From NCBI GenBank assembly GCA_038736355.1, contig JAVYML010000001.1, positions 180,908-244,907 on the forward strand: 64,000 bases of DNA. Reading direction: 5' to 3'. A program made the translations under genes and the position numbers. Positions 22,513 to 60,191 of the stretch are shown piece by piece. Within the stretch, counting starts at the first letter, position 1; each line of letters starts with the position of its first letter. This DNA is from Candidatus Hadarchaeales archaeon (GTDB lineage Archaea > Hadarchaeota > Hadarchaeia > Hadarchaeales > WYZ-LMO6). A model generated the notes under the pieces. That model searched no databases. It was not told the DNA's origin and was given only the letters and a program-made list of their open reading frames with translations.

Positions 22513-24228
22513 ATGGTTACCTACAGTGACCGTCCATGGATTAAAATTTATGAGCAAATAGGTCTTCCCTATAAATTCGACTATCCCAAGATACCACTTT
22601 TCGAACTCATCGATCGGGCGGCTGCGGAGTATCCCGAAAGCAAAGCCATGGTGTACTTCGATAGGGAGTATACCTATGCCCAGTTGAAGTCCTACACGGA
22701 TCGGCTGGCCACGGCCCTTAGCAAGAAGATGGGGATAAAGAAGGGGGATGTGGTGGGAGTACAGCTCTTCAACTCTCCCCAGTTCATCATAGGAGTCTAC
22801 GGTTCCTTAAAGGCCGGGGCCATTGTAGCCCTCATGAGCCCCCTCCTCCCCACCCCGGAGTTGGAGTACGAGATCAGCACTTCTGGCGCTAGGGTGGTCA
22901 TTACCGACGAGTCCAGAGTGGAGGAAATAAAGGCCATGAAACACCGCACCAAGCTGGAACAAATCATTGTTACCTCCGTGAAGGATTTCTCTCCCTCGGA
23001 AGATCCCGTGCCTCCGAAGGTGGAAGGAGCCATCCAACTGCGCCAACTCCTCTCGGAAACGGAAGCGGACCCGCCCAAGCTGGAAATAGATCCGGTAGAA
23101 GATGTTGCCCTCCTCTTCTTCACCGGGGGTTCCACCGGCATTCCCAAGGGGGTGATGCTCACCCACTACAACCTCACCACCAACATCGTCCAAACCTTCG
23201 GTCCTACGGCGGCAGGTATGCTGGAACCGAACAAAGGAAACTTTTCGGTGATGGGATGTCTGCCCTTCTTCCACATTTATGGTTTCACTTGCGCCATGAA
23301 CGTGGCCCTTTATTGGGCGGGATGCCTCCTGCTCGTTCCCGATGCCAGAGATACGAAGATGATTTACGAGCTACTGGTAAAATACCGTCCCCTTTTGATG
23401 CCCGGGGTTCCTACCCAATTCATGAGGTTGCTCCAAGAAAAGAATGTGGACCTTTCCGAACTGAAGGGATGTGTACCCTATAGCGGTGCTGCTGCCCTTC
23501 CCCCAGAGGTTTCCAAACAATTTGAGGAGAAAGCGGGTGTATTGGTCAGCGAGGGTTATGGGCTTTCGGAAGCCAGTCCCGTCACCCATTCCAACTTCGT
23601 GGCCATCCTCAAGGGTGCGGGGATCGATCTTGGGTTACCGGTAAAGCTGGGATCCATAGGCATACCCGTGCCCGATACGGATGTTAAAATAGTGGACATA
23701 GAAACGGGGACGAAGGAAATGCCCGTGGGGGAGCCAGGGGAAATGATCATCAAAGGACCACAGATAATGAAGGGTTACTGGCCCACCCCGGGCAGTGGTT
23801 TAAGGGATGGATGGCTGTATACGGGGGATGTGGCGAAGATGGACGAAGATGGCTACTTCTACATCGTCGACCGCACGAAAGACATGATCAACGTCTCGGG
23901 TTTGAAGGTCTATGGAAGGGTGGTGGACGATGTTCTCTACGAACATCCGGCTGTGGCCAAGGCAGCTGCTGTGGGCATACCCGATCCCGAGCGCCCCGGA
24001 AGCGAAAGGGTGAAGGCCTTCATCGAACTAAAGGAAGGATACGAACCCAGCGAGGAGCTGAAGGAGGATATTCTCAGACATTGTAGGGAGAGGCTTCCGC
24101 CCTACGCCGTCCCCAAATTCATAGAATTCAGGAAGGAACTTCCCCTTACCGTTACAGAGAAGGTTTTCAAACGGAAGCTCAGGGAAGAAGAAATAGAGAA
24201 GATGAAGAAGGCTGGGCTCCTTAAGTAA
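22513..24228 (+). CDS. AMP-dependent acyl-CoA synthetase/ligase
   Basis: 571 aa; AMP-binding motif FFTGGSTGIPKGVMLTHYN, YGLSE, GWLYTGDV. TATA-like TTTTTTATAGGGG sits about 40 nt upstream. Confidence 0.9.
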   Translation: MVTYSDRPWIKIYEQIGLPYKFDYPKIPLFELIDRAAAEYPESKAMVYFDREYTYAQLKSYTDRLATALSKKMGIKKGDVVGVQLFNSPQFIIGVYGSLKAGAIVALMSPLLPTPELEYEISTSGARVVITDESRVEEIKAMKHRTKLEQIIVTSVKDFSPSEDPVPPKVEGAIQLRQLLSETEADPPKLEIDPVEDVALLFFTGGSTGIPKGVMLTHYNLTTNIVQTFGPTAAGMLEPNKGNFSVMGCLPFFHIYGFTCAMNVALYWAGCLLLVPDARDTKMIYELLVKYRPLLMPGVPTQFMRLLQEKNVDLSELKGCVPYSGAAALPPEVSKQFEEKAGVLVSEGYGLSEASPVTHSNFVAILKGAGIDLGLPVKLGSIGIPVPDTDVKIVDIETGTKEMPVGEPGEMIIKGPQIMKGYWPTPGSGLRDGWLYTGDVAKMDEDGYFYIVDRTKDMINVSGLKVYGRVVDDVLYEHPAVAKAAAVGIPDPERPGSERVKAFIELKEGYEPSEELKEDILRHCRERLPPYAVPKFIEFRKELPLTVTEKVFKRKLREEEIEKMKKAGLLK

Positions 24229-24246: not shown

Positions 24247-24818
24247 TCAAACGTATTCGTCCACGAAGATCGTTGGCACTTGTGAAGCGATCTTTCCCAT
24301 CTGTTGCGTCGCCTTGATGTACCTCATCACCTTGCTCATGTCTCCCTGGAGTTTCATCTTGCCAGTGAGCACCAGCTTGGTGGCATCGCTCTCGGCCTTC
24401 GCCAGCTTCTTCCAAGAATCGTAAGAACCTATCAGTTTGAAGCCCACCTGCACCTCGTTGGGATCCTTCAGCAGGCGCATACCCGTGCACTTCCCATCCT
24501 TGAGCCCGACGTACACATAGATGGTCTTCCCTTTCAGGTATTCCTTCATGACGGCCTTGAATTCCTCCTGGATTTTCTTGGCCTCCTCAAAGGTAATTCC
24601 TGCCTTTTCCGCGAGCTGCTTGATTTCCGCATCAGACATCGTTTCCGCCTTCTGCAACTTTTCCACGGGGACCTCGTCTATCTGGAAGATGAAATCTCCG
24701 TTCCATCCCACGCCCCATCCCTTGCCAGCCTCGGCCATTACCGGATCGCTGTTAAGTCTTTTGACATATTCCTCGTTCCAAGCTTGGGTTCCAAAAGCCA
24801 ACTTTGTCATTCTCATCC
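24247..24818 (-). CDS. SCP2 sterol-carrier-like domain protein (paralog A)
   Basis: Start taken at MRMTKLAFGTQAW (ATG 24818); the track ORF extends to 25077 through an unlikely His/Gly-rich extension. Shares GKGWGVGWNGDFIFQID...LTGKMKLQGDMSKVMRYIKATQ with paralog B. Confidence 0.6.
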
Positions 24819-24908
24819 CCCTTTTAGGCTTCCTACACCTCCATAAATACCCTTCGGGACTCCCCTCTGGAACTTCAAGGGAAAAAAGAAAAAAGGGAAA
24901 AACTATGT

Positions 24909-25406
24909 TTAGACCATCTCGTCCAAGAATTCCGTCGGAATCTGTGAAGCGATCTTTCCCATGAGCTGCGTCGCCTTGATGTACCTCATCACCTTGCTCA
25001 TGTCTCCCTGGAGTTTCATCTTGCCAGTGAGCACCAGCTTGGTGGCGTCTGCTTCTCCCTTCGCCAGCTTCTTCCAAGATTCATAGTCTCCTATTAGCTT
25101 GAAACCGGCTTGCACTTCGTTGGGATTCTTAATGACCTTCGCACCCGTACACTTCCCATCCTTCAGACCTATCCAAGTATATACCGTGGTACCAGAGACA
25201 TACTTCTCCATCATTTCCTTCATGTACTTCTTCAGATCCCCTTCGGGCAGTTGCTCTATTTTCTCCACTGGCACCTTGTCTATCTGGAAGATGAAATCTC
25301 CGTTCCATCCCACGCCCCATCCCTTGCCTGCTTCTTCCAGTTCTTTGCTCTCATTCAGTTTCTTGACATATTCCTCGAGCCATTCAGGTGTCGGAAAAGG
25401 TACCAT
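24909..25406 (-). CDS. SCP2 sterol-carrier-like domain protein (paralog B)
   Basis: 165 aa; two exactly identical DNA tracts of about 80 nt and 52 nt shared with paralog A (24305-24384 vs 24967-25046; 24676-24727 vs 25278-25328). Confidence 0.6.
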   Translation of the reverse strand: MVPFPTPEWLEEYVKKLNESKELEEAGKGWGVGWNGDFIFQIDKVPVEKIEQLPEGDLKKYMKEMMEKYVSGTTVYTWIGLKDGKCTGAKVIKNPNEVQAGFKLIGDYESWKKLAKGEADATKLVLTGKMKLQGDMSKVMRYIKATQLMGKIASQIPTEFLDEMV

Positions 25407-25469
25407 TCGTCCACCTCTTTTTTTGGTTTACACTTTTCTTTCAGTCCATCCTCTATAAAACCTTTCCCT

Positions 25470-26078
25470 TCAAACTTTCTCTTTAACCAAAAGTTTGGGA
25501 AGGAGTTTCATGAGGGGCGCAAGCCTCATCGCGTCTGCTACCTTACCTTCCACCTTGTATCTACCCATTAAAGCACCCCAGATGGGATCCACCTTTCCCG
25601 TCAGGAGCCCCATCAAATCCGCGGTAGAGGCAAAGACGGTGAGATCTGCCATCATCGCTCCCCTTCCACCCCCAGACAGTTTTCCCTCACTCACCTTGAA
25701 GTGACCAACCATGGGAGAATCCGTTGCTTTGAAGTTCACAATGAGAGTTTTCATTTCCTCTAGCTTTTTCCTGATCTCGGGATCCTCCTCAGCCAAAACC
25801 CCCAATCCTTCCCAAAGCACATCCAGAAATCTGGAGGAGGCTTGAGGTACTTCCCTCACAAAGCTCGCCAAATCCAGCGTTTCCATCTTCTCCACCATCT
25901 TGGAGAGGAGATCGGGAACGGCCCTCAGGAATTCCCTCACCCCTACGCTCTGAATGGTATCCATCAAAAAGGAAAGACTAGACTTCAGTTCTTCCTCTGA
26001 TAGAGTTAGGGCCCCTTCCACCACCGATCTGAGGTCCTCCCCCACTCTCTCCGATAGGATTAATTGGCGCCTCCTCAT
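25470..26078 (-). CDS. helical N-domain + C-terminal SCP2-like domain protein
   Basis: 202 aa; C-terminus GKLSGGGRGAMMADLTVFASTADLMGLLTGKVDPIWGALMGRYKVEGK is SCP2-like. Confidence 0.5.
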   Translation of the reverse strand: MRRRQLILSERVGEDLRSVVEGALTLSEEELKSSLSFLMDTIQSVGVREFLRAVPDLLSKMVEKMETLDLASFVREVPQASSRFLDVLWEGLGVLAEEDPEIRKKLEEMKTLIVNFKATDSPMVGHFKVSEGKLSGGGRGAMMADLTVFASTADLMGLLTGKVDPIWGALMGRYKVEGKVADAMRLAPLMKLLPKLLVKEKV

Positions 26079-27334: not shown

Positions 27335-29191
27335 TTGCCCGGATATATGGGGAAGCTCCTGAGGGTGGATCTCTCCCACGGAAAGATAGTGGAAGAAGAG
27401 GTCAAAGAAACTGAAGTGAGAAAGTTTTTGGGTTGCAGGGGTCTGGGGGCCCGCTATCTCTTCGAAGTCAGAAAGGGAGCAGATCCCCTGGGACCCGAGA
27501 ACAAACTCATTTTCATGACAGGTCTTCTCACGGGAACAGGCTTTCCTACCGCTGGAAGATACGATGTGGTTTCCAAATCTCCTCAGACGGGTTTTTACGG
27601 TCATGCCAACTCCGCCGGTTTTTGGGGAGTGGACTTCAAGCGCACGGGTTTCGATGGCATCATCTTTGAGGGGATTTCTCCTAACCCCGTCTACCTGTTC
27701 GTGGAGGACGGGAGGGCTGAACTGAGGGATGCCAAGCATCTTTGGGGCAAGGGTGTGCATGAAACCACCAGAATGTTGAAGGAGGAGCTGGGTGAGAGGG
27801 TCAACGTGGCAGCCATAGGGCCTGCGGGGGAGAACTTGGTCAGGTATGCTTCCATCCTCAACGATTACAACAGGGCCGCGGGGAGATGCGGCATGGGGAC
27901 AGTGATGGGCTCCAAAAAGCTCAAGGCCGTTGCCGTGAGGGGAACGAAAAAAGTGGAAGTGGCAGACCCAGACAGGTTGAAGGAGCTGACCAAGGAAGTC
28001 ATAGAGTTGGCCGGTCAAAACATGTTGAAGACCAGTCTGGAAACCTTTGGAACCAACTCGGGCTTCGATTTGGTAAACGCCATGGGTGGAATGCCCACGA
28101 GGAACTGGCAGGAAGGAGTCTTCCCCGCTGGGGAAAAGATCAACGGACCTGCCCTTTCCGACAAGGTCTTGGTGGGAACCAAAGGATGTTATGTCTGCCC
28201 CATCCATTGCGCCAGACTCTCGGAGGTGAAAAGTGGACCCTACGCCTGCAAGACGGAGGGACCGGAGTACGAATCGGTTGGGGCCTTGGGATCCATGTGC
28301 GGGGTGGATAGCATGGAAGCCATCACCTATGCCCACCACCTGTGCAACGATTATGGGATGGACACGATAAGCACGGGAAGCACGATCGCCTTCGCCATGG
28401 AATGTTTTGAGAAGGGCATCCTGACGAAGGAGGATACTGGCGGTTTGGAGCTGAGGTTCGGTGATGCCGATACCATGGTAAAACTGGTACACCTGATAGC
28501 CCGCAGGGAAGGAATAGGGAACCTTCTAGCCGAAGGAACGAAGAGGATGTCGGAGAAACTGGGGAAGGGATCGGAGAGGTTCGCCATGCACTCGAAGGGA
28601 CTGGAGTTCGCGGCCTATGATCCAAGGGCGGCCAAAATCGTGGGGCTCGCCTATGCCACCTCCAACAGGGGAGGATGCCACATCAATGCCTACGTCCAGC
28701 TTCAAGCCTTCATAGGAGCCCCACAGCCCCTGCTTCCCGAAGACATAAGAGAACCCTTCTTCGATCCCCTCTCGGAAGACCCCATTTTGGGAAGGGTGGT
28801 GAAGGAAACTGAGGATGCCTATGCCTTCGTGGAGGCACTTGGGATGTGCAAGTTTCTGGGCTGGATGATAACCGCCGACAAGGTGGTGGAAGCCGTGGTG
28901 GCTGCTACGGGATGGAAGGATTTCGATGAAAGGGAACTGAGGAGATGTGGGGAAAGGATCTACAACTTGGAGAGGATGTTCAACGTGAGGGAAGGTTTGA
29001 ACCGTTCCCACGATTCCCTACCCAAGCGGCTACTGGAAGAACCCCACCCCTCCGGACCGGCCGCTGGACAGGTGGTACATCTGGAGCCCATGCTCGATGC
29101 CTATTATCAATACCGTGGATGGGACAGGAACGGCATACCCACCAAGGAAAAGCTGGCGGAGCTCGACCTCCTAGACCTTCCGATGGCCTGA
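27335..29191 (+). CDS. aor: tungsten-containing aldehyde:ferredoxin oxidoreductase
   Basis: 618 aa; N-terminal MGKLLRVDLSHGKIVEEEV...FLGCRGLGARYLF, AOR_N plus catalytic domains with the pterin-binding motif region. Confidence 0.9.
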   Translation: MPGYMGKLLRVDLSHGKIVEEEVKETEVRKFLGCRGLGARYLFEVRKGADPLGPENKLIFMTGLLTGTGFPTAGRYDVVSKSPQTGFYGHANSAGFWGVDFKRTGFDGIIFEGISPNPVYLFVEDGRAELRDAKHLWGKGVHETTRMLKEELGERVNVAAIGPAGENLVRYASILNDYNRAAGRCGMGTVMGSKKLKAVAVRGTKKVEVADPDRLKELTKEVIELAGQNMLKTSLETFGTNSGFDLVNAMGGMPTRNWQEGVFPAGEKINGPALSDKVLVGTKGCYVCPIHCARLSEVKSGPYACKTEGPEYESVGALGSMCGVDSMEAITYAHHLCNDYGMDTISTGSTIAFAMECFEKGILTKEDTGGLELRFGDADTMVKLVHLIARREGIGNLLAEGTKRMSEKLGKGSERFAMHSKGLEFAAYDPRAAKIVGLAYATSNRGGCHINAYVQLQAFIGAPQPLLPEDIREPFFDPLSEDPILGRVVKETEDAYAFVEALGMCKFLGWMITADKVVEAVVAATGWKDFDERELRRCGERIYNLERMFNVREGLNRSHDSLPKRLLEEPHPSGPAAGQVVHLEPMLDAYYQYRGWDRNGIPTKEKLAELDLLDLPMA

Positions 29192-29200
29192 GGGAAGAGG

Positions 29201-31117
29201 ATGAATCCCTTTCCCGTTCTCTTTTCCCCTATTTCCATAGGTAGGATGGTGGTGAGGAATCGCATCGTGATGCCCGCCCTCACCACCGGCTATGCCTTTG
29301 GGGAGGTCACGGACCAGCTCAAGCACTATTTCGAGGCCAGGGCAAAGGGAGGAGCAGGTCTCATCGTGGTGGGAATAGCCGCCGTGGAAAAGGGAACGGA
29401 ATACGTGATCTCTGCCTCCGACGACTCCTACATCCCCGGTCTGAGGGAACTGGCGGAGACCATCCACGCCCACGGGGCCAAGACCGCCCTCCAGCTTTGG
29501 CATCCAGGAAGGTATGAGTTCGTGGAGATCACGGGGAGGGAACCCGTCTCTGCCTCCGACGTCCCTCCCCCCATCTTCAGTAGGGTGAAGCCCAGGGCCC
29601 TCACCGTTCCGGAAATCAAGAGGATAGAGGAGGAGTTCGCACAGGCGGCGGGGAGGGCGAAGGAAGCTGGCTTCGATGCGGTGGAATTCATAGGTTCAGC
29701 AGGCTATTTGATAAGCCAGTTCCTCTCCCCCGTCACCAACAGACGCACCGACGAATACGGTGGATCCTTGGAAAACAGGATGAGGTTCCTCCTCGAAATC
29801 GTGGAGCTGACCAAGGAAGTGGTGGGAAAGGACTTCCCGCTGATGTGCCGCCTCTCCGGGGACGAACTCATCCCGGGAGGGAATACGCTTTCCGAGATGA
29901 AAATAGTGGCCAGGAAGCTGGCGGAAGTGGGCATTTCCGCCATCAACGTTACCGCGGGATGGCATGAATCGAGGGTTCCCATGATCACCATGGAGGTCCC
30001 GAGGGGAGGATACGTGTACCTGGCGGAGGGTATCAAAGAAGCCCTGAAGGGAACGGAGGTGAGGGTGGCGGCCAGTAACCGCATCAACGAGCCCTTCCTA
30101 GCCGAAAGGATCCTGAGGGAGGGAAAGGCGGATTTGATCTCCATGGGAAGGGCACTGGTAGCCGATCCCGAGTTCCCCAGGAAGGCACAAGAGGGAAGGG
30201 TGGAGGACATCGTCACCTGCGTGGCCTGCTGTCAGGGTTGTTTCGACAGGCTCTTCGAGGGAAGGCCCCTAACGTGCATGGTCAACCCTGGTGTGGGAAG
30301 GGAGGCCGAAGTGAAGGTGGAACCGGCGGTCAAGAAGAAAAGGGTGCTGGTCGTGGGGGGAGGACCGGGAGGACTGAAGGTGGCGGAAATGGCCGCCCTC
30401 AGAGGCCATCAAGTCATCCTCTGCGAGGAAGATGGGGAGCTGGGAGGACAGCTCAACTTGGCTTCCATCACACCAGGAAGGGAGGAACTGGGAACGGTGG
30501 TAAGGGAACTGGCCCTCCATGCCAAGAAGGCTGGAGTGGAAATAAGGCTGAGAACGAAGGTGGATGCCGACATGGTGGAGGAAATAGAACCGGATGCCGT
30601 GGTATTGGCCACCGGTGCTCTGCCCATCGTTCCTTCTTTCCCCGGCGTTGACCTTCCCCACGTAGTACAGGCTTGGGAGGTTTTGAAGGGGAGGGAAGTG
30701 GGAAAGAGGGTGGTGGTAGTGGGAGGAGGAGGGGTGGGATGCTATACTGCCCATTACCTCTCTTCCAGGGGAAGGGAAGTGACTCTTCTGGAAATGCTGG
30801 AGAAAGTGGCTGGTGATGTTGGTATCACCACCCGTTGGATCCTGAGGGAGAACCTGAAGAAGGGAGGCGTGAGGATCTTCACTTCCACCAAAGTGAAGGA
30901 AATCCGCCCCGAAGGGGTGGTGGCCACGAGAGGGGAGGTGGAAGAGGTTTTCCCAGCGGACTCGGTGGTGCTGGCCGTGGGGTCCAGACCCAACTCGGGT
31001 TTGGTCGAGGAACTGAGGGACAAAGTGGAGGAACTTTACCTAGTGGGGGACTGCCTCCAACCCAGAAAGGCCTTGGATGCCATTCGCGAAGGGTGGGAGG
31101 TGGGTCTCAAGCTCTAG
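29201..31117 (+). CDS. Old-Yellow-Enzyme-like FMN oxidoreductase fused to FAD/NAD(P)-binding domain (2,4-dienoyl-CoA reductase / NADH oxidase family)
   Basis: 638 aa; OYE TIM-barrel N-terminus (FSPISIGRMVVRNRIVMPAL, HAHGAK..QLWHPGR); C-terminal dinucleotide motifs VLVVGGGPGGLKVAE and VVVVGGGGVGCYTA. Confidence 0.85.
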   Translation: MNPFPVLFSPISIGRMVVRNRIVMPALTTGYAFGEVTDQLKHYFEARAKGGAGLIVVGIAAVEKGTEYVISASDDSYIPGLRELAETIHAHGAKTALQLWHPGRYEFVEITGREPVSASDVPPPIFSRVKPRALTVPEIKRIEEEFAQAAGRAKEAGFDAVEFIGSAGYLISQFLSPVTNRRTDEYGGSLENRMRFLLEIVELTKEVVGKDFPLMCRLSGDELIPGGNTLSEMKIVARKLAEVGISAINVTAGWHESRVPMITMEVPRGGYVYLAEGIKEALKGTEVRVAASNRINEPFLAERILREGKADLISMGRALVADPEFPRKAQEGRVEDIVTCVACCQGCFDRLFEGRPLTCMVNPGVGREAEVKVEPAVKKKRVLVVGGGPGGLKVAEMAALRGHQVILCEEDGELGGQLNLASITPGREELGTVVRELALHAKKAGVEIRLRTKVDADMVEEIEPDAVVLATGALPIVPSFPGVDLPHVVQAWEVLKGREVGKRVVVVGGGGVGCYTAHYLSSRGREVTLLEMLEKVAGDVGITTRWILRENLKKGGVRIFTSTKVKEIRPEGVVATRGEVEEVFPADSVVLAVGSRPNSGLVEELRDKVEELYLVGDCLQPRKALDAIREGWEVGLKL

Positions 31118-32329: not shown

Positions 32330-32701
32330 TTGGGGATGAAATCCTTCAGGTACAAGCAAGTAATGGTCGTAAGGGAAGATCTGTCCATGAGTAGGGGAAA
32401 GCTTGCCGCCCAAGTAGCACATGGGGCCGTGCTTGGAGCGGAGGAATGTAGGAAAAAGAAGGAGGAATGGTTCAGGGGATGGATGGAGGAAGGACAGAAA
32501 AAGGTGGTGGTTTCGGTTCCTGGGGAAAACGAGTTGAGGGAACTCTTCAGGGAGGCAAAGGAGCTCGGATTGCCCGCGGGACTGGTGGAGGATGCCGGAC
32601 TTACCGAACTTCCTCCTGGAACGGTCACAGTGCTGGCCGTCGGACCGGCACCCTCCGAGTTGGTGGACAGGGTCACGGGAAAACTGCCCCTCTTGAGGTG
32701 A
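32330..32701 (+). CDS. pth2: peptidyl-tRNA hydrolase, archaeal type
   Basis: 123 aa; KQVMVVREDLSMSRGKLAAQVAHGAV. Confidence 0.9.
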   Translation: MGMKSFRYKQVMVVREDLSMSRGKLAAQVAHGAVLGAEECRKKKEEWFRGWMEEGQKKVVVSVPGENELRELFREAKELGLPAGLVEDAGLTELPPGTVTVLAVGPAPSELVDRVTGKLPLLR

Positions 32702-35265: not shown

Positions 35266-36312
35266 TCACTTCCTTCCCAAAAAGGTTGGAAGCTTCCCCA
35301 CCAGGGGGATCTCCCTCCCGCAGCGCGGACACCTCCTTCCCTTCAGCCTGCATTCCTTCAGGGAAAGACCGAAACGCCTGAGGAGGAGCTCCCCGCAGGA
35401 AGGACAGTAGGTATTTTCGTACCTGTGTCCGGGAACGTTTCCCACATATACAAAATCCACCCCCTCCCTCACCGCCAGCTCCCGTGCCCTTTCCAGGGTG
35501 GAGACGGGTGTGGGTGGAACGGTGAACCTGAAGGAGGGATAGTAGGCGGTGAAATGCAGGGGTGTCTCCGGTCCTGCCTCCTTCAGGTGGCGACGGATTA
35601 AGGAAAGCAACTGGTCCTCCCCATCGTTCAGTCCCGGAATGATGAGGTTCACGACCTCCACGTGTAGGCCCAACCTCCTGGCCAAGCCCACATTCCTCCA
35701 GACCTTTTCCACATCCGCTCCGCAGTACTTTCTCACGACCTCTCCATCCCCCTTTACGTCTATGTTGATGGCGTCCAGTCCCGCATCCGCCAAGGCCCTC
35801 AGGGCCTCTTCGGTCATGTATCCGTTGCTCACAAAGGTGTTGTACAGTCCCCTTTTCCTCGCCAGCGGAAAGACCTCCAGGGCCCATTCGAAGAGGAGGG
35901 TAGGTTCGTTGAAGGAGAGGGAGGTTCCCTCGCATCCCTCCCTCAGGGTGAGTTCTACGAACTCCTCCGGACTCAGGTAGTTGGCCCTTTCAGGCTTGGG
36001 TTTACTCTTGGAAAGGGTCCAGTTCTGACACCATCCGCAGGTGAAGTTGCATCCCCAAGTTCCCACCGTGAGGGCCACGGACCCCGGCCAGAAGTGGTAG
36101 AAGGGTTTCTTCTCTATGGGATTGGCCGAAAGGGAAGAAATATCACCGTAGACGAGCGTCCTGAGTTCTCCATCCATGTTCTTCCTCGTCCCGCAAAAGC
36201 CCTCCTTTCCCTCCCCTATCTCGCACCTCCTCTCGCAAAGCCCGCACCTTACCCTGTTCCCTTCAAGCTTTTCCCAAAGGAGGGCCCTTCTTACGGTGGG
36301 AAGGGACTCCAT
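35266..36312 (-). CDS. AmmeMemoRadiSam-system-type radical SAM enzyme (PFL-activase-like) with C-terminal zinc ribbon
   Basis: Start taken at MESLPTVRRALLWEKLEGNRVRCGLCERRCEI; motifs GTWGCNFTCGWCQN and N-terminal CGLCERRC; C-terminal CPSCG...CPRCG. The start at 36375 in the ORF track would overlap the tRNA-Asp gene. Confidence 0.8.
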   Translation of the reverse strand: MESLPTVRRALLWEKLEGNRVRCGLCERRCEIGEGKEGFCGTRKNMDGELRTLVYGDISSLSANPIEKKPFYHFWPGSVALTVGTWGCNFTCGWCQNWTLSKSKPKPERANYLSPEEFVELTLREGCEGTSLSFNEPTLLFEWALEVFPLARKRGLYNTFVSNGYMTEEALRALADAGLDAINIDVKGDGEVVRKYCGADVEKVWRNVGLARRLGLHVEVVNLIIPGLNDGEDQLLSLIRRHLKEAGPETPLHFTAYYPSFRFTVPPTPVSTLERARELAVREGVDFVYVGNVPGHRYENTYCPSCGELLLRRFGLSLKECRLKGRRCPRCGREIPLVGKLPTFLGRK

Positions 36313-36342
36313 CCCCTTACTTGGAGGATGGAGTATAAGCAG

Positions 36343-36448
36343 TGGCGCCCTGGCCGGGATTTGAACCCGGGGCACAGGCTCGACAGGCCTGTATGTTTGG
36401 TCTCGGGAACTCCTCGCCCCCGATTAGACCGGGCTACACCACCAGGGC
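36343..36448 (-). tRNA. tRNA-Asp(GUC) with about 28-nt insertion (non-canonical intron) in the D-loop; CCA encoded
   Basis: Minus strand: GCCCTGG-TG-GTGT-[AGCCCGGTCTAATCGGGGGCGAGGAGTTCCCGAGACCAA]-ACAT-A-CAGGC-CTGTCGA-GCCTG-TGCC-CCGGG-TTCAAAT-CCCGG-CCAGGGC-G-CCA. All stems pair; the anticodon loop is CTGTCGA (GUC). The insertion folds as GGTCT/AGACC + CGGG/CCCG helices with an AAT bulge. Confidence 0.7.
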
Positions 36449-36512
36449 GCCAAACTTCCTTCCTCCACGCGATTAAAGAAATTTTCCCGCCCGGGATTGG
36501 CCTTTGGCCAAA

Positions 36513-36638
36513 GGTGGTTGGCGGCGTCCTGGAGTTCCCGTCCGCTTCCGCAGGACAGTACAGTCCAGATCGCTGGCGGGCTTAACTTCCGGGATCGAAC
36601 GAGACCGGGTGTTTCCCCGCCGCTATGGCCGCCAACCA
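36513..36638 (-). rRNA. rrf: 5S ribosomal RNA
   Basis: Minus strand GGTTGGCGGCCATAGCGGCGGGGAAACACCCGGTCTCGTTCGATCCCGGAAGTTAAGCCCGCCAGCG...GGACGCCGCCAACC; universal 5S loop-C/helix-III motif CCCGGAAGTTAAGCC and a complementary helix I. Confidence 0.85.
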
Positions 36639-36971: not shown

Positions 36972-38087
36972 ATGTTGGTGAGACTCAAAATAACGAAAAT
37001 GGGGGAAGAAGGGGAAGGACTGGCGGAATGGGAGGGAAGGGAGATAAGGGTGCTCAACGCCCTCCCAGGAGAGGAGGTGGAGGCGGAGTTCCTCACGAGG
37101 GGGAAGACCCCCATAGCCGTGGCAAAGGAAATCCTCTCCCCCTCCCCCGATAGGAGAGAACCTCCCTGTCCCCTTTTTCCCCGTTGTGGGGGATGCCAGT
37201 TCCAGCACCTCAAGTATCCCAAACAACTCGAGCTCAAGAGGAGAAGGATCGAAAAAGTCCTGGGGGAAAGGGTGGAACCACCCATAAGCAGGGGTGAACT
37301 GGGCTACAGAAACCATGCCAGACTAACGGCTAGAAGGGGGGAAGTGGGCTTCGTGAACAAGTTCACCCACGAGTTCGTAAGGGTGGACCGCTGTCTCCTC
37401 ATGTCCCCTCTCATAAACGAGTTGCTTTCCAAAGTGCAGGGGAGGTGCTTCAGCACCATGGCTTCCATCAGGGTAGGAATAAGGACGGGAGAATACCTCA
37501 TCCAGCCCGACCTCTTCTTACAGGATCTGCCCACCGGACAGTCCTTTTATCACGAGATCCTGCTGGGAAGGAGGTTCAGGATTTCGGCTTCTTCCTTTTT
37601 CCAGACCAACACTGAAGGTGCGGAGGAGATGGTGAGGATGGTGAGGGAATGGGTGGGAAGCGCCGGAAAAGTGGTGGATGCTTATGCCGGGGTCGGGGTT
37701 TTCGCCGCCCTCCTTTCGGACCTCGCCTCGGAGGTCTTGGCAATAGAGGTCTCATCCTCCGCCGAAAAGGATGCGCTGCACAACCTAGGAGGATTACCCA
37801 ATGTGAAGTTCGTGAAGGGAAGAGTGGAGGAGATACTTCCGCTGGAAAACGTGGATGTTCTCCTTTTGGACCCTCCCAGGGAGGGATGCTCCGGGAGGGT
37901 CATAGAAGCCATCAACCTCTCTCCCCCCAGGAGAATCGTTTACGTCTCCTGTAACCCCACGACCCTGGGGAGGGATCTGGCCAAATTGAAGGGCTTCATC
38001 CTCGAGAAGGTCCAGCCCATAGACCTCTTTGCCCAGACCAAACATGTGGAATGCTTGGCCCTCTTGAGGAGGGAGGACCTACCCTAG
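36972..38087 (+). CDS. TRAM-domain RNA (uracil-5)-methyltransferase (RlmD/TrmA family)
   Basis: ATG at 36972 (MLVRLKITKMGEEGEG is the TRAM start); Cys cluster CPLFPRCGGCQFQH; SAM motifs VVDAYAGVGVFA, DVLLLDPPREG. The track start at 36825 is a TTG. Confidence 0.8.
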   Translation: MLVRLKITKMGEEGEGLAEWEGREIRVLNALPGEEVEAEFLTRGKTPIAVAKEILSPSPDRREPPCPLFPRCGGCQFQHLKYPKQLELKRRRIEKVLGERVEPPISRGELGYRNHARLTARRGEVGFVNKFTHEFVRVDRCLLMSPLINELLSKVQGRCFSTMASIRVGIRTGEYLIQPDLFLQDLPTGQSFYHEILLGRRFRISASSFFQTNTEGAEEMVRMVREWVGSAGKVVDAYAGVGVFAALLSDLASEVLAIEVSSSAEKDALHNLGGLPNVKFVKGRVEEILPLENVDVLLLDPPREGCSGRVIEAINLSPPRRIVYVSCNPTTLGRDLAKLKGFILEKVQPIDLFAQTKHVECLALLRREDLP

Positions 38088-38169: not shown

Positions 38170-38260
38170 TGGTCCCGCGGGGGAGATTTGAACTCCCGAC
38201 TTGCCGGTCTCGGCCTTGGGTCTACAGCCGGCCGCTCTAACCAGGCTGAGCTACCGCGGG
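38170..38260 (-). tRNA. tRNA-Tyr(GUA) with 13-nt canonical (37/38) intron; C1:G72; CCA encoded
   Basis: Minus strand CCCGCGG-TA-GCTC-AGCCTGGTTA-GAGC-G-GCCGG-CTGTAG[ACCCAAGGCCGAG]A-CCGGC-AAGTC-GGGAG-TTCAAAT-CTCCC-CCGCGGG-A-CCA. The C1:G72 pair is the archaeal/eukaryal Tyr identity element. Confidence 0.8.
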
Positions 38261-52044: not shown

Positions 52045-53160
52045 TTAAAAAGTAGGATAAATCTCATGCAGGAGTCTCTCCACCTTGGACCTTACCTCCT
52101 TCCTCCTTTCCTCCAGCTCCCTCAAAAAGTCCTTGGCCCTCTCCACCATTCCCTCCTTGCATTCTCCACAGATGATTTCCCCCTTCTCGCACCTTTCCTT
52201 CAACTCCAAGAGCTCCTTGTCCTCAGGCATGAAGTGGTACATACAGAGCTCGTATACCAGACACTTGGAAGGTTCCCCCCCCTTCTCCCTCTGCTCCCTG
52301 GCGGTCGGTCTTCCCCCCGTAAGGGCATCCCAAATCTTTCTCTCCCAAACCTCTGGGGGATCGGTGAGGAAAAGGGCCGAGTCCGGCCTACTGCTGGACA
52401 TCTTTCCCCCGAAGAGATCCCTCATCAACCTATGATAGGTGGAGGAAGGGGGAAGGAAACCATATTCTTCGGAAAATTTGGCCGCCACATCCCTCGCCAA
52501 TCTCAGATGCGGATCCTGATCCACACCCACGGGAACCACCGTGGGTCTGGGACCCCCAAACTTCTCCAGCTGGGGATGGAGGATGTCCGCCACATCTATC
52601 ATGGGATAGTAGAGATGGGAGAGATGTGTCTCTCCAGAAAAGCCGTAGATGGCCCTCACTTCGCTGAAGTTCACCTTCCTGGCCAGGCTGTAGGCCAAAC
52701 CCTGCACTTCCTGGCTCCTGGACTGGAAGTACACCCTGCACCTCTCCAATTCTAGGCCCAAAGCCTCGCAGTTCAACAAATATTCCTCAAACGCTATCTC
52801 CCTACCCTTCTCGTACGGGATGCCCCTAGCGGAGAAGGCCTCCATATCCGCTATGCAAAGGAAGATCTCCCCTCCCTTCCTTTGATACCAGACGAGCTGA
52901 TCCACCACCATCTTGTGCCCCAGATGCATCTTTCCACTCGGCATGAGCCCCGTCATGACCGCATACCTTCCGTTTCCAATCATCCTCTCGAGGACCCTTT
53001 CGAAGTCCCGATGTCCGAAGATTACTCCCCTCCTCATCAGGTGGAGGGGATCGGGGATTCTAGGGAGGAGTTCCTCCAAGGGTCTTATCCCGAATTCCTG
53101 CATGAGTCTGGAGTAGTCTTCGGGTAATCCCGTTCCCCAAGGATCCAGTTTCTCTGGCAT
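52045..53160 (-). CDS. trpS: tryptophanyl-tRNA synthetase (archaeal type)
   Basis: 371 aa; HIGH-type SGKMHLGH; KMSSS variant of KMSKS (typical of archaeal TrpRS). Confidence 0.85.
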   Translation of the reverse strand: MPEKLDPWGTGLPEDYSRLMQEFGIRPLEELLPRIPDPLHLMRRGVIFGHRDFERVLERMIGNGRYAVMTGLMPSGKMHLGHKMVVDQLVWYQRKGGEIFLCIADMEAFSARGIPYEKGREIAFEEYLLNCEALGLELERCRVYFQSRSQEVQGLAYSLARKVNFSEVRAIYGFSGETHLSHLYYPMIDVADILHPQLEKFGGPRPTVVPVGVDQDPHLRLARDVAAKFSEEYGFLPPSSTYHRLMRDLFGGKMSSSRPDSALFLTDPPEVWERKIWDALTGGRPTAREQREKGGEPSKCLVYELCMYHFMPEDKELLELKERCEKGEIICGECKEGMVERAKDFLRELEERRKEVRSKVERLLHEIYPTF

Positions 53161-57167: not shown

Positions 57168-60100
57168 CTAGCCGGGGAAAGGACAGGTCCTCGTGGGGCA
57201 TCCCCCCGCATACTCCGCTTCGGCCGCCACGAACTTCGCCTCCCTTCCTATGTAAAGCACCTGCTCCGGTTTGCTCCCATAGCGGAAAATCGTTACCCCC
57301 TTGCACTTGAGTCTCCAAGCTAGCTCGTAAACCCTTTCCACCTCCTCCACGGTGGCTTCAGAAGGAAGGTTGACGGTCTTCGAAACAGCGTTGTCGGTGT
57401 ATTTCTGGAAGGCGGCCTGCATCCTCACATGCCACTCGGGGGGGATGTCCAAGGCAGTGACAAAGATCCTCCTGAGGTCCTCCGGAACCCCTTCCACCCC
57501 GCGGAGGGATCCGGTCTTGGCTATTTCTTCGAGAAGCTTCGCACTGTAAAAACCCCTTTCCTTGGCCATGAGCTCGAAGAGGGGATGGATTTCGAAGAGC
57601 TTCCTTCCCCCCAGCACCTTCCTAATGAAAGAGAGGGCGAAGATGGGTTCTATCCCGGAAGAACATCCGGCGATGATGCTTATGCTCCCCGTCGGGGCTA
57701 TGGTGGTCACGGTGGCGTTCCGCATGGCCCCATACCTATCCTTCCAGATGCTCCTTTCGAAGTTGGGGAAGGAACCGCGCTTTTCGGCCAATTCCACCGA
57801 CTTCTTGCGTGCTTCTTCCGAGATGAAGCGCATCAATTTCTCCGCCAGCCTCAGTGCCTCCTCCGAATTGTAGGGGATACCCAATTTGATCAGCATATCG
57901 GCAAAACCCATGACCCCCAATCCTATCTTCCTGTTGGCCTTGGTGATTTCCTCTATCTCCCTGAGCGGGTACCTGTTGGCATCTATGACGTTGTCCAGGA
58001 AGTGAACGGCGCTTCTCACCGTCTTTCCCAGTTTCTCCCAGTTCACTTCTTTCCCCTCCACCATCCTCGAAAGGTTGATGGAGCCCAGGTTGCAGGATTC
58101 GTAGGGCAGGAGGGGCTGTTCCCCACAGTTATGCACACAGAAGCCGTTGGCATCGAAGAGGTTCACACCCGGGACCCTAACATCGAAGACCTCTTCTCGA
58201 CCCTTGAAGACAAGGCTTTCTACGGTGGCCAGGAAGCGTCCCCCCTCCATCCCCCCCTTGTAAAGGCTGAGAAGACGTTCCAAGCGTTCCCTTTTCTTCG
58301 GGTCTCCAAAGCCTATTTTCCGGGCGAAAACGAGGAGATCTTCCCCGGAAATAACCAGCTCGCGCACCCTTCCTTTGCGGATTTTCGAATATATCCCGAA
58401 CCTGAGGAGAATGCGCTGTACTGCCCTCAAAATCTCCAAGTTGCTCTGCACCAATCTCACACTAACACCCTTCCGTTTACTTCCCCGAACCGAACCATTG
58501 ACATCGAACAGTCCCCTAACCAAGCCCCTACAGAAGGCCGAAGAGGCCTTTTCCATCGGAACGGTGATCCTCCTTTCTCCTGGCCTCAGCCCCATTTCCC
58601 TCGCAAGTTTCTCCAAGGAATCTGATCCGTTGGGCAGTTTCTTCATACGGGCGTGGGTAAGGTCCTCCACCCTTCCCTCCTTCCCGTCGCCCAAGAAGAG
58701 ACCCACCAAATAGCCTTCCTCGAAGGTGAATTTTCCCTCCCAAGAAGTCACAACCCGGTTGCGGTTCAAAAGTACCTTATCCCCCCTCTCCAGTTTTCCC
58801 GCCGGTACCCACTCCATTTCCCTCGCGCATCCCGTCCTTCCCTTGACCCTGAGAACGGGATGATCCCATGTAAGACAAACCTCGAACCCTTCCCTCGTAA
58901 TCAGCCTGTAAACCGGCCTCACTCCAGTCCTGAAGAATCCCTCCTCCGTAGTTTCCCACTTCCCCCCATTCGCCACGACCACGAACTTTTTCCCGATGAG
59001 GTCCCTTACCTGTCTAGGTCCCTCTTCTGTCATGACCCAAGTGTAGACGGGCACACATGGGTTGGTAGCCTCTATCCTACCCACTCCAGGCGTGGGGTTG
59101 TGGCGGTTGATTTCGTCTATGAAGATCACTCCGGGATCTCCGCTCGCCCAGGCGGACTCTGCCATCAACTTCCAAACGCTCCTAGCCCTCAGTTTCTCCA
59201 CCCTCTCCCCGTTCCTGGGATTGATGAGCCAGTATTCCCCGTCCTCTTCCACCTTTTCCATGAACTCGTCCGTGACGGAGACGGAGAGGTTGAAGTTCTG
59301 TAGAAAGGTGTAATCCCTCTTACAGGTGATGAACTCCAGGATATCTGGATGGTCCACCCTAAGAATCCCCATCATGGCACCCCTTCTCCTCCCTCCCGCC
59401 TTGATGACCTCAGTTGTGATGTCGAAGATCCTCATGAAGCTTACCGGTCCCGAGGCCACACCCATCGTCGATTTCACCAGGTCCCCTTTGGGTCTGAGCC
59501 TGGAGAAGTCGAACCCCACACCCCCACCGCTCTTCTCTATGATGGCCATGTTCCTCACGGCCGTGAGAATACTTTCGAGGGAGTCTTCCACAGGAAGGAC
59601 GAAACAGGCGGAGAGCTGCCCCATTTCTGTCCCTGCGTTGAAGAGGGTAGGGGAATTGGGAAGGAACTCCAAACGCGCCATCATTCCGTAAAAGATTCGC
59701 TCGCTCTCCTCAGGATCCTCACCGTAGTTTCTATCTACCCCAGCTACGGCCTTCGCCACCCTTGAAAACATCTGCTGGGGTGTCTCGACGACTCTTCCCG
59801 TCTCATCCCTCAAAAGGTATCTACTGCGGAGGACCTCCAGGGCATTGACCGTAAGCTTGGGCTCGGGAATCCCGAGGCTCTGTCTCAACCTCCTTATCTC
59901 CTCTTTCTTCTCCCTGTACGATTGATATTCCTCCGCCACCCTTTCATAACCCCTCCTCCTCAGAACCTCCACAACCGCATCTTGGGCATCCTCCACGGAG
60001 GGTATCCTTTCCCTGAACCTCTCCTCCAGCATCCTTACCACCTCCCTGGTAACCTCCTCTGCTTTTTCCCCATCCTCCTGCTCCACGGCTATGAAGGCCC

Positions 60101-60191
60101 TATGAACGGCGTCCCTGATTTTGCTGGGATCGAAATCTACCAGCCTTCCGTCCCTCTTTTTTATCTTCTGAATTGGCATATCCAAAATCAT
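57168..60191 (-). CDS. nrdJ: ribonucleotide reductase, class II (adenosylcobalamin-dependent, NrdJ-like) with N-terminal ATP-cone and one intein
   Basis: 1007 aa; ATP-cone [16 protein letters not shown]; catalytic ATNP^[intein]^[19 protein letters not shown]; C-terminal Cys pair. Confidence 0.9.
58128..59057 (-). mobile_element. intein (310 aa) with LAGLIDADG homing-endonuclease domain inserted in the RNR active-site motif
   Basis: Begins Cys (NP|CVPVYT...), ends ...FCVHN|CGEQ; the C at +1 is the RNR cysteine of the NPCGEQ motif. LAGLIDADG blocks [13 protein letters not shown] and [12 protein letters not shown]. Boundary codons were verified on the sequence. Confidence 0.85.

Follow-up and report, generated by a model that had tools for sequence, protein, structure and literature searches.

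A 28-nucleotide D-loop intron of a known archaeal type splits the tRNA-Asp(GUC) gene of a hot-spring Hadarchaeales archaeon

We analyzed a 64-kb stretch of DNA (the window, to which all positions refer) from an uncultured hot-spring Hadarchaeales archaeon; this window is the part of the genome that the analysis covered. Hadarchaeota are the Hadesarchaea, once the euryarchaeal SAGMEG group. The minus strand of the window carries a gene for tRNA-Asp(GUC), which starts 67 nt after a 5S rRNA gene and reads over 106 nt from G1 through an encoded CCA. The locus is a genuine tRNA-Asp gene whose D-loop is split by a 28-nt intron of a known archaeal type. All arms could be read directly from the sequence, in agreement with the initial annotation of this DNA, which had described all stems and the GUC anticodon loop as intact. 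The acceptor stem is GCCCUGG/CCAGGGC, followed by discriminator G73 and CCA; the D-stem is GUGU/ACAU; the anticodon arm is CAGGC-CUGUCGA-GCCUG, with GUC at 36384..36382; and a variable loop of 4 nt precedes the T arm, CCGGG-UUCAAAU-CCCGG. The two strands of the D-stem are separated by exactly 39 nt, the same figure that the initial annotation had given.

The additional 28 nt correspond to positions 25–52 of the pre-tRNA and form an exact indel against intron-less orthologs. When they were deleted in silico, ARAGORN drew a clean 78-nt tRNA-Asp(gtc) with a D-loop of 11 nt, and the spliced D-arm, GUGU-AGCCCGGUCUA-ACAU, was base for base the D-arm of the intron-less orthologs. The latter were recovered, together with intron-bearing genes, by a metagenome scan with a pattern that tolerated 0–30 extra bases. 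They were present in at least 10 metagenome contigs (L037–L039, L042, L044, L046, L047, L050, L053, and L060), all with the sequence GGUGU-AGCCCGGUCUA-ACAU, and those scanned scored 52–55 bits on the Rfam tRNA model. None of the intron-bearing tRNA-Asp genes was reported by Rfam at the gathering threshold.

Since A residues flank the insert, comparison of the letters leaves its boundary ambiguous, from 20b/21 to 22/23. According to the archaeal cut rule, 4 bp separate the two sites and cleavage takes place after the second nucleotide of the bulge (PMC4090602), and on this rule the predicted sites are UA↓A and AA↓A (the arrow marks a cut or a junction). Cuts at these sites give exactly the junction of the intron-less orthologs. 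The spliced exons would thus be joined as GGUCUA↓ACAUACAGG, or in a longer form ...GCCCGGUCUA↓ACAUACAGGCC..., and the predicted junction of a circular intron is ...GAGACCAA↓AUCGGGGG....

Folding the insertion, one of the checks that the initial annotation had suggested, located an unpaired element at each of the two predicted splice sites. The RNAfold structure of the D-loop region consists of a 4-bp GGUC/GACC helix, a UAA bulge, and an 8-bp hairpin (−18.2 kcal/mol, z = −2.8), with an unpaired AAA and then CAU on the 3' side of the 4-bp helix. The motif is a relaxed HBh', comprising a central helix (H), a single clean bulge (B), and an inner helix (h'). It is relaxed, and the outer helix (h) is missing, because five to six unpaired D-loop bases stand opposite the AAA. 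A strict hBHBh' motif would have an outer helix closing a second 3-nt bulge and would lie at position 37/38; the intron lies at 21/22, and when an outer helix formed by AGCCC was sought in the folds, no partner was found adjacent to the AAA, the opposite bases from U13/A14 to C17a being unpaired.

The hairpin described in the initial annotation is therefore real, but the register given there (GGUCU/AGACC, an AAU bulge, and CGGG/CCCG) is an alternative pairing with U10–A33 in place of U13–A33. We rejected it as the productive register, since with a 4-bp helix it predicts a D-loop of 13 nt (…GGUCUAAA) that was found in no ortholog. Nor do the nucleotides of the lower helix all belong to the insert, as had been assumed, because its 5' strand is exon G18 G19 U20 C20a. 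The motif had rightly been called relaxed, but its class is HBh' and not hBH or bulge-helix-loop (BHL), as the 3' cut would fall in the AAA after GACC instead of the hairpin loop. With cleavage in the loop, CCCGAGACCAA (about 12 extra nt) would stay in the D-loop, whereas the intron-less orthologs lack all 28 nt. Two other identities were also rejected, namely a group I intron (28 nt against a core of more than approximately 200 nt with helices P3–P9; no Rfam intron match) and a C/D-box guide RNA (28 nt is too short; no Rfam match).

Two collection scans with patterns that left the bulge, the AAA, and the hairpin unspecified yielded 11 distinct Hadarchaeota versions of the insert, with lengths of 28, 30, or 31 nt. 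In the unconstrained fold of every version, a lower helix formed on G18/G19 and a hairpin stacked on it beyond a 3-nt bulge, and this helix-bulge-helix architecture was found in 11/11 natural inserts versus 13/3300 shuffled ones. Forcing the UAA register cost at most 0.3 kcal/mol in all 11 versions; in the window it is itself the minimum free energy (MFE) fold. GGUC, the UAA bulge, the first U–A pair of h', and the AAA were invariant throughout. The intron strand of helix H is GACC, GGCC, or GACU among the relatives, with the pairing always kept. The hairpins measure 6–9 bp, their h' pairs are all Watson–Crick or G–U, and both-side (compensatory) changes occur at pairs 3 (GC/CG/UG/AU), 5 (GC/GU/AU), 6 (GC/GU/AU), and 8 (CG/UA/GC). 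Because a MAFFT alignment placed the intron gaps out of line with the hairpin, each sequence was folded on its own for the pair counts, and the alignment served neither for these counts nor for a covariance model.

The exons are identical across lineages in which the splicing endonuclease EndA is just about 60–75% identical, and this indicates purifying selection. The complete 106-nt sequence was found in five contigs from metagenome-assembled genomes (MAGs) or SRA. Several NCBI MAG contigs and an SRA assembly encode an identical copy of the neighboring DUF763 protein, and all of them carry the identical 106-nt gene; the GTDB species representative Candidatus Hadarchaeales archaeon JZ-2_201705_bins_146 (L025) also has the same tRNA-Asp sequence as the window. 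With a perfect cloverleaf after deletion, intron-less orthologs, and a covarying HBh' motif, the non-canonical D-loop intron proposed in the initial annotation is upheld, and we consider it highly probable that the 28-nt insert is a genuine endonuclease-spliced intron of the bulge-helix-bulge (BHB) type at the 3' edge of the tRNA-Asp D-loop.

A second non-canonical insert, 18–22 nt long, is present at position 68/69 of the acceptor stem in many Hadarchaeota-like tRNA-Asp genes (L021, L027, L037, L043, L045, L046, L048, L053, L055, L056, and L059), but not in the gene of the window. The insert has the form CCA↓A..hairpin..G(C/U)CGA(U/C)↓GGGC and is independent of the D-loop intron, the two being found together in L021, L027, and L048.

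The gene is overlooked by the annotation programs used here. ARAGORN, whose intron handling is confined to introns of the anticodon loop, called no gene at 36343..36448 either by default or with the intron option (-i); this check, likewise suggested in the initial annotation, thus failed on the unspliced gene and succeeded after the 28-nt deletion. A whole-window Rfam search, run with the gathering cut-off and again with E ≤ 0.5, returned just the 5S rRNA and tRNA-Tyr genes and no tRNA-Asp. The tRNA model gave a partial match of 22.2 bits on the locus, under the 29-bit cut-off, and at E ≤ 10 this partial match appeared together with a spurious mascRNA match. The search pattern for tRNA-Asp is expected 0.00 times in the shuffled window. 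Hidden tRNAs were also sought in the window by means of the T-loop motif GGTTCRAATCC, and none beyond chance was found. Downstream of the gene, the GTG start of a radical-SAM open reading frame (ORF; 35266..36375, minus strand) would overlap the 3' end of tRNA-Asp. The likely true start is an ATG at 36312, preceded by GGGGA and located 30 nt past the CCA, and the GTG start is a possible cause of mis-annotation over the unrecognized tRNA gene.

In the four intron-less loci where the upstream DNA was checked (L038, L039, L041, and L042), a 5S rRNA gene lies 30–45 nt upstream of tRNA-Asp, in the same slot as in the window. The order of 5S rRNA followed by tRNA-Asp is conserved across Hadarchaeota, with the intron present or absent. 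The arrangement noted in the initial annotation is therefore correct, but in this lineage it is not the unusual combination it had been taken for. The spacing between the two genes, compared between L010, L012, L021, L025, and L029 on the one hand and the window, L013, L027, L031, L038–L042, L048, and L051 on the other, ranges from approximately 30 nt to approximately 1.7 kb, with a protein gene between them in some species. A CTTTAA/CTTAAA box with an A-rich segment was found at the same upstream distance in every Hadarchaeota tRNA-Asp locus (L010–L062), including those without an adjacent 5S rRNA gene. The tRNA-Asp gene thus probably has a promoter of its own and need not be co-transcribed with 5S rRNA.

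The splicing endonuclease gene endA was identified by a Pfam scan of 57 window ORFs. It is located about 17 kb from tRNA-Asp, immediately 5' of the gene for a class-I W/Y aminoacyl-tRNA synthetase (52045..53160), and its 177-residue product is listed at NCBI as "tRNA-intron lyase [Candidatus Hadarchaeales archaeon]". The protein aligned end to end with the Methanocaldococcus jannaschii enzyme (PDB 1A79; E = 1.7e-35), residues 12–177 matching 9–171 with three one-residue gaps. The catalytic triad Tyr113/His123/Lys154 is intact, and the acidic L10 loop is DDEGD, compared with DADGD in M. jannaschii. As a single chain of about 180 residues with N- and C-terminal domains, the triad, and an acidic L10, the protein has the makeup of an alpha4-type subunit. 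Broad-specificity enzymes are distinguished from strict ones by a Lys-bearing insertion beside the active site, known as L1 (the CSL), L2 (the ASL), or L3 (NEQ-type). No insertion corresponding to the Crenarchaea-specific loop (CSL) or to the ASL was found in alignments with the M. jannaschii enzyme and relatives; the alpha subunit of Aeropyrum pernix has nine extra residues at the CSL site. The Tyr–His loop has nine residues, as in M. jannaschii, and that of ARMAN-2 has 14. At the CSL/ASL site, the segment GKPLSGGK, which is two residues longer than in M. jannaschii and contains two lysines, is conserved in eight close, mostly Hadarchaeota-named, aligned relatives. The 120 closest homologs are single proteins of 156–223 residues, nearly all of 177–182, and many are named Hadarchaeota or Hadesarchaea. 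No RtcB gene was found among the 57 ORFs scanned.

In Kaneta 2018 (PMC5829648), the enzyme of Hadesarchaea (YNP_N21) is classed, after a genome search, as alpha4 with an "L3" loop. The same paper links this enzyme to a marked rise in disrupted tRNA genes, of which Hadesarchaea have many. Although Hadesarchaea are scored there as L3-bearing, no such insertion relative to M. jannaschii was seen in the window EndA.

Table 1. Positions in the window of the tRNA-Asp(GUC) gene, its parts, and other features. H and h' denote the central and the inner helix.
Feature	Position	Strand	Basis or remark
Pre-tRNA-Asp(GUC), CCA encoded, 106 nt	36343..36448	-	direct reading; ARAGORN tRNA-Asp(gtc) after intron deletion
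5' exon, tRNA positions 1 to 21: acceptor 5' strand, U8 G9, D-stem GUGU, D-loop AGCCCGGUCUA	36425..36448	-	same as in intron-less L038, L039, L042, L050
28-nt intron AUCGGGGGCGAGGAGUUCCCGAGACCAA, Sprinzl position 21/22	36397..36424	-	exact indel versus intron-less orthologs; boundaries predicted from the bulge-helix-bulge rule
3' exon: D-stem ACAU, anticodon arm, 4-nt variable loop, T arm, acceptor 3' strand, G73, CCA	36343..36396	-	sequence and ARAGORN
Helix H, 5' strand GGUC (exon G18 G19 U20 C20a)	36427..36430	-	pairs with GACC in unconstrained MFE fold
5' bulge UAA, 3 nt, predicted 5' splice site UA↓A	36424..36426	-	unpaired in MFE fold; invariant in 11/11 Hadarchaeota variants
Helix h', 8-bp hairpin UCGGGGGC / GUUCCCGA, loop GAGGA	36403..36423	-	all pairs kept in 11/11 variants
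Helix H, 3' strand GACC, intron 3' end	36399..36402	-	MFE fold
Unpaired AAA, predicted 3' splice site AA↓A, last A becoming A22	36396..36398	-	invariant in 11/11 variants
Putative tRNA-Asp promoter in 5S–tRNA spacer: purine-rich GGGAAAA, then TATA-like CTTTAA, about 25–30 nt upstream of G1	36473..36490	-	conserved position
5S rRNA gene, 67 nt upstream of tRNA-Asp	36516..36636	-	Rfam RF00001, 98.1 bits
tRNA (uracil-5-)-methyltransferase family gene, between tRNA-Asp and tRNA-Tyr	36972..38087	+	
tRNA-Tyr(GUA), 13-nt intron at canonical anticodon-loop site	38170..38260	-	Rfam, ARAGORN
Peptidyl-tRNA hydrolase PTH2 gene	32336..32701		
endA, tRNA-splicing endonuclease, 177 aa	53160..53693	-	Pfam PF01974 and PF02778

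Besides the genes in Table 1, the window contains a ribonucleotide reductase large subunit gene (57168..60191, minus strand) split by an intein that carries a LAGLIDADG homing-endonuclease domain (PF14528, PF14890). Three tandem SCP2 sterol-carrier-like genes (24247..26078, minus strand) adjoin an AMP-binding acyl-CoA synthetase gene (22513..24228). On their other side, approximately 1.3–3 kb away and past an MFS-transporter gene, are genes for an aldehyde:ferredoxin oxidoreductase (27347..29191) and an Oxidored_FMN/Pyr_redox_2 protein (29201..31117).

The tRNA-Asp intron belongs to a known class, in a lineage already flagged for disrupted tRNA genes. The initial annotation had called D-loop introns rare outside Thermoproteales and Korarchaeota, a view that is outdated given the cases in Methanopyrus kandleri and A. 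pernix (PMC5829648) and those in Hadarchaeota, Asgard, and DPANN. The tRNA-Glu of M. kandleri has an HBh' D-loop intron at 20b/21 that is supported by RNA-seq and has been studied biochemically; it is spliced in vitro by the A. pernix enzyme, which also efficiently splices the D-loop intron of A. pernix pre-tRNA-Thr (PMC5829648). The intron described here resembles that of M. kandleri in its class and, within one nucleotide, in its place at the 3' edge of the D-loop. Both hosts are non-crenarchaeal, formerly "euryarchaeal" hyperthermophiles, and the EndA of M. kandleri likewise lacks the CSL and ASL. Unlike in M. kandleri, the tRNA is Asp and not Glu, the enzyme looks alpha4 and not (alpha-beta)2, and the gene has no added canonical intron, as that of tRNA-Glu does; moreover, the M. 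kandleri intron has RNA-seq support, whereas the present one is predicted from its sequence.

In Crenarchaeota, introns away from the canonical site, at 20/21, 22/23, and elsewhere, are well established (PMC4090602; see also Marck & Grosjean 2003 and Sugahara 2008). The tRNA-Asp intron is like those of Thermoproteales and of A. pernix tRNA-Thr in being short, bounded by an hBH or HBh' motif, and located away from 37/38, the D-arm included, and the Hadarchaeota relatives with a second intron at 68/69 are reminiscent of the multiple-intron tRNAs of Crenarchaeota. The enzymes differ, since those of Crenarchaeota are (alpha-beta)2 with a Crenarchaea-specific loop (Lys44), and this loop is absent from the window EndA. 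A canonical hBHBh' intron at 37/38 is available for comparison 1.7 kb away, in tRNA-Tyr(GUA); it would share with the tRNA-Asp intron the enzyme system and the rule of a 4-bp helix, 3-nt bulge, and cut position. In tRNA-Asp, by contrast, the intron is in the D-loop, there is no outer helix, and the 3' site is in an asymmetric internal loop. The BHB of tRNA-Tyr, drawn by hand, has two AGA bulges, a U33–C mismatch in the central helix, and an inner helix of approximately 1 bp. With this mismatch and so short an inner helix, the canonical intron of the window is also imperfect.

The share of intron-bearing tRNA genes can exceed 90% in Asgard genomes (PMC11291895), and Asgard EndAs are reported to carry the L1 loop (PMC5829648). 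Our genome scan found D-arm introns of tRNA-Asp in Hadarchaeota, Asgard, and DPANN MAGs. The Asgard intron was present in 14 loci, titled Promethearchaeota or Hodarchaeota or, where untitled, "uncultured archaeon". It comprises approximately 32 AT-rich nt at 20b/21, with H = CGGU/GCCG, bulges CUU and AAA, and the mature D-loop AGCCCGGUCUA. A further Asgard locus (L017) confirms the junction, as it has no D-loop intron; it has an insert in the variable/T region. The intron in the window is thus like that of Asgard (e.g. L009, L020, and L033) in the tRNA, the mature D-loop, the HBh'-type motif on G18/G19, and the 3' AAA, and unlike it in that the Asgard helix is shifted by one nucleotide, which places the cut at 20b/21, and in that the introns are unrelated in sequence. 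As a weaker corollary, the tRNA-Asp D-loop intron of Hadarchaeota and Asgard, whose sites lie within 1 nt of each other, may be either ancient or the mark of a strongly preferred insertion site. A tRNA-Asp intron at 24/25, in the 3' strand of the D-stem, was found in four Aenigmatarchaeota or uncultured archaea (L006, L007, L016, and L018) and in a Heimdallarchaeota MAG (L019). It has H = CUAU/GUAG and bulges CAA and AAU; in the fold of L016, the anticodon-stem strand can also contribute to an outer helix, a motif that approaches a strict BHB. Two bacterial matches were discarded: the tRNA-Asp of a Dormiibacterota contig contains an NN gap flanked by an internal duplication and is probably an artefact of assembly, and the Acutalibacteraceae match is an unrelated tRNA with a long variable arm, matched by chance.

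On these grounds, splicing may be pictured as follows. Transcription of the tRNA-Asp gene would probably be driven by a TATA box of its own, located in the 5S–tRNA spacer. In the precursor, G18 G19 U20 C20a of the D-loop are predicted, with support from covariation, to pair with GACC at the 3' end of the intron, so that the 4-bp central helix is flanked on one side by the UAA bulge and the 8-bp intron hairpin and on the other by the unpaired AAA. From this geometry and the orthologs, EndA would cut at UA↓A and AA↓A, and an RtcB-type ligase would join the halves, the 28-nt intron being released, probably as a circle. The product would have an ordinary 11-nt D-loop, AGCCCGGUCUA, with G18 and G19 freed for the elbow contact with the T-loop. 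G18 and G19 make this contact in all canonical tRNAs, and because helix H sequesters both, removal of the intron would be needed.

Several points weigh against this picture. Both the splicing of tRNA-Asp in this organism and its spliced state are deduced from sequence and folds, and the view on a second intact tRNA-Asp gene or a second EndA subunit is confined to the 64-kb window. In addition, relaxed motifs are held to be efficiently removed only by (alpha-beta)2, epsilon2, or specific-loop endonucleases (PMC6379350), while the window EndA is collinear with the strict alpha4 enzyme of M. jannaschii without a CSL or ASL insertion, and the intron motif lacks the outer helix. The locus could in principle be a pseudogene, a tRNA-Asp copy killed by the 28-nt insertion while a working gene resides elsewhere in the genome, and the failure of Rfam at the gathering cut-off and of ARAGORN to call it, as well as the confinement of the tRNA search to the window, would be compatible with this. 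A dead copy would, however, hardly hold the orthologous slot behind 5S rRNA that intron-less tRNA-Asp genes occupy in relatives, retain the conserved TATA-like box upstream, keep its exons identical across divergent lineages with changes in the insert only where pairing survives, and flank the insert with precisely the geometry that a splicing endonuclease needs; we regard this explanation as very improbable. Still slightly less credible is that the 28 nt are retained and that the mature tRNA-Asp has an enlarged D-arm with an extra hairpin. That hairpin is stable (−18 kcal/mol), but its helix would sequester G18 and G19, which canonical tRNAs need for the T-loop contact, and the insert is absent altogether from sister lineages whose exons are identical. 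What is conserved, moreover, is the 4-bp spacing and the 3-nt bulge, i.e. the geometry of the endonuclease, and not the sequence of the hairpin.

If the insert is a spliced intron, as we hold, the enzyme is the less certain part. The intron could be cut by a composite of EndA and a structural (beta) paralog encoded outside the window, an (alpha-beta)2 arrangement like that of M. kandleri. In favor of such a composite, the best overall PDB match of EndA is the M. kandleri enzyme, in which alpha and beta are fused (5X89, E = 1.3e-47), relaxed motifs are associated in the literature with (alpha-beta)2 and epsilon2 enzymes (PMC6379350), and the endA search spanned 64 kb of the genome. On the other hand, the triad and acidic L10 loop of the window EndA fit one subunit in both roles, Hadesarchaea were classed as alpha4 after a genome search (PMC5829648), and all of the 120 closest homologs are single proteins within the size range given above. 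A composite enzyme is on balance unlikely, although far less so than a pseudogene or a retained insert, and a hidden beta subunit would alter the enzyme, not the intron. We infer that the window EndA excises the tRNA-Asp intron and would suffice alone, and that excision and ligation would take place in vivo. The wider proposal, that this 177-residue protein is the sole splicing endonuclease of Hadarchaeales and yet removes relaxed HBh' introns at 21/22 and, in sister lineages, at 68/69, is put forward tentatively, and we would not yet count on it.

For the annotation of Hadarchaeota, the finding means that MAGs may be scored as being without tRNA-Asp, as Rfam at its gathering cut-off and ARAGORN overlook the gene; the conserved motif GGUC-UAA-hairpin-GRCY-AAA offers a handle for finding intron-bearing tRNA-Asp genes. 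Since the D-loop and acceptor-stem introns vary independently among close relatives while the exons remain constant, these genes provide a clean series for the study of intron gain and loss. The least ordinary element of the finding is the strict-looking EndA. A conserved relaxed intron and a strict-looking, homotetramer-type EndA in one window bear on the question of what sets the substrate breadth of the enzyme. If this EndA alone suffices, nature would offer an exception to the rule by which relaxed motifs require (alpha-beta)2, epsilon2, or loop-bearing enzymes, and the GKPLSGGK segment or the basic RGE(R/K)PGE Tyr–His loop would then be the minimal specificity determinant.

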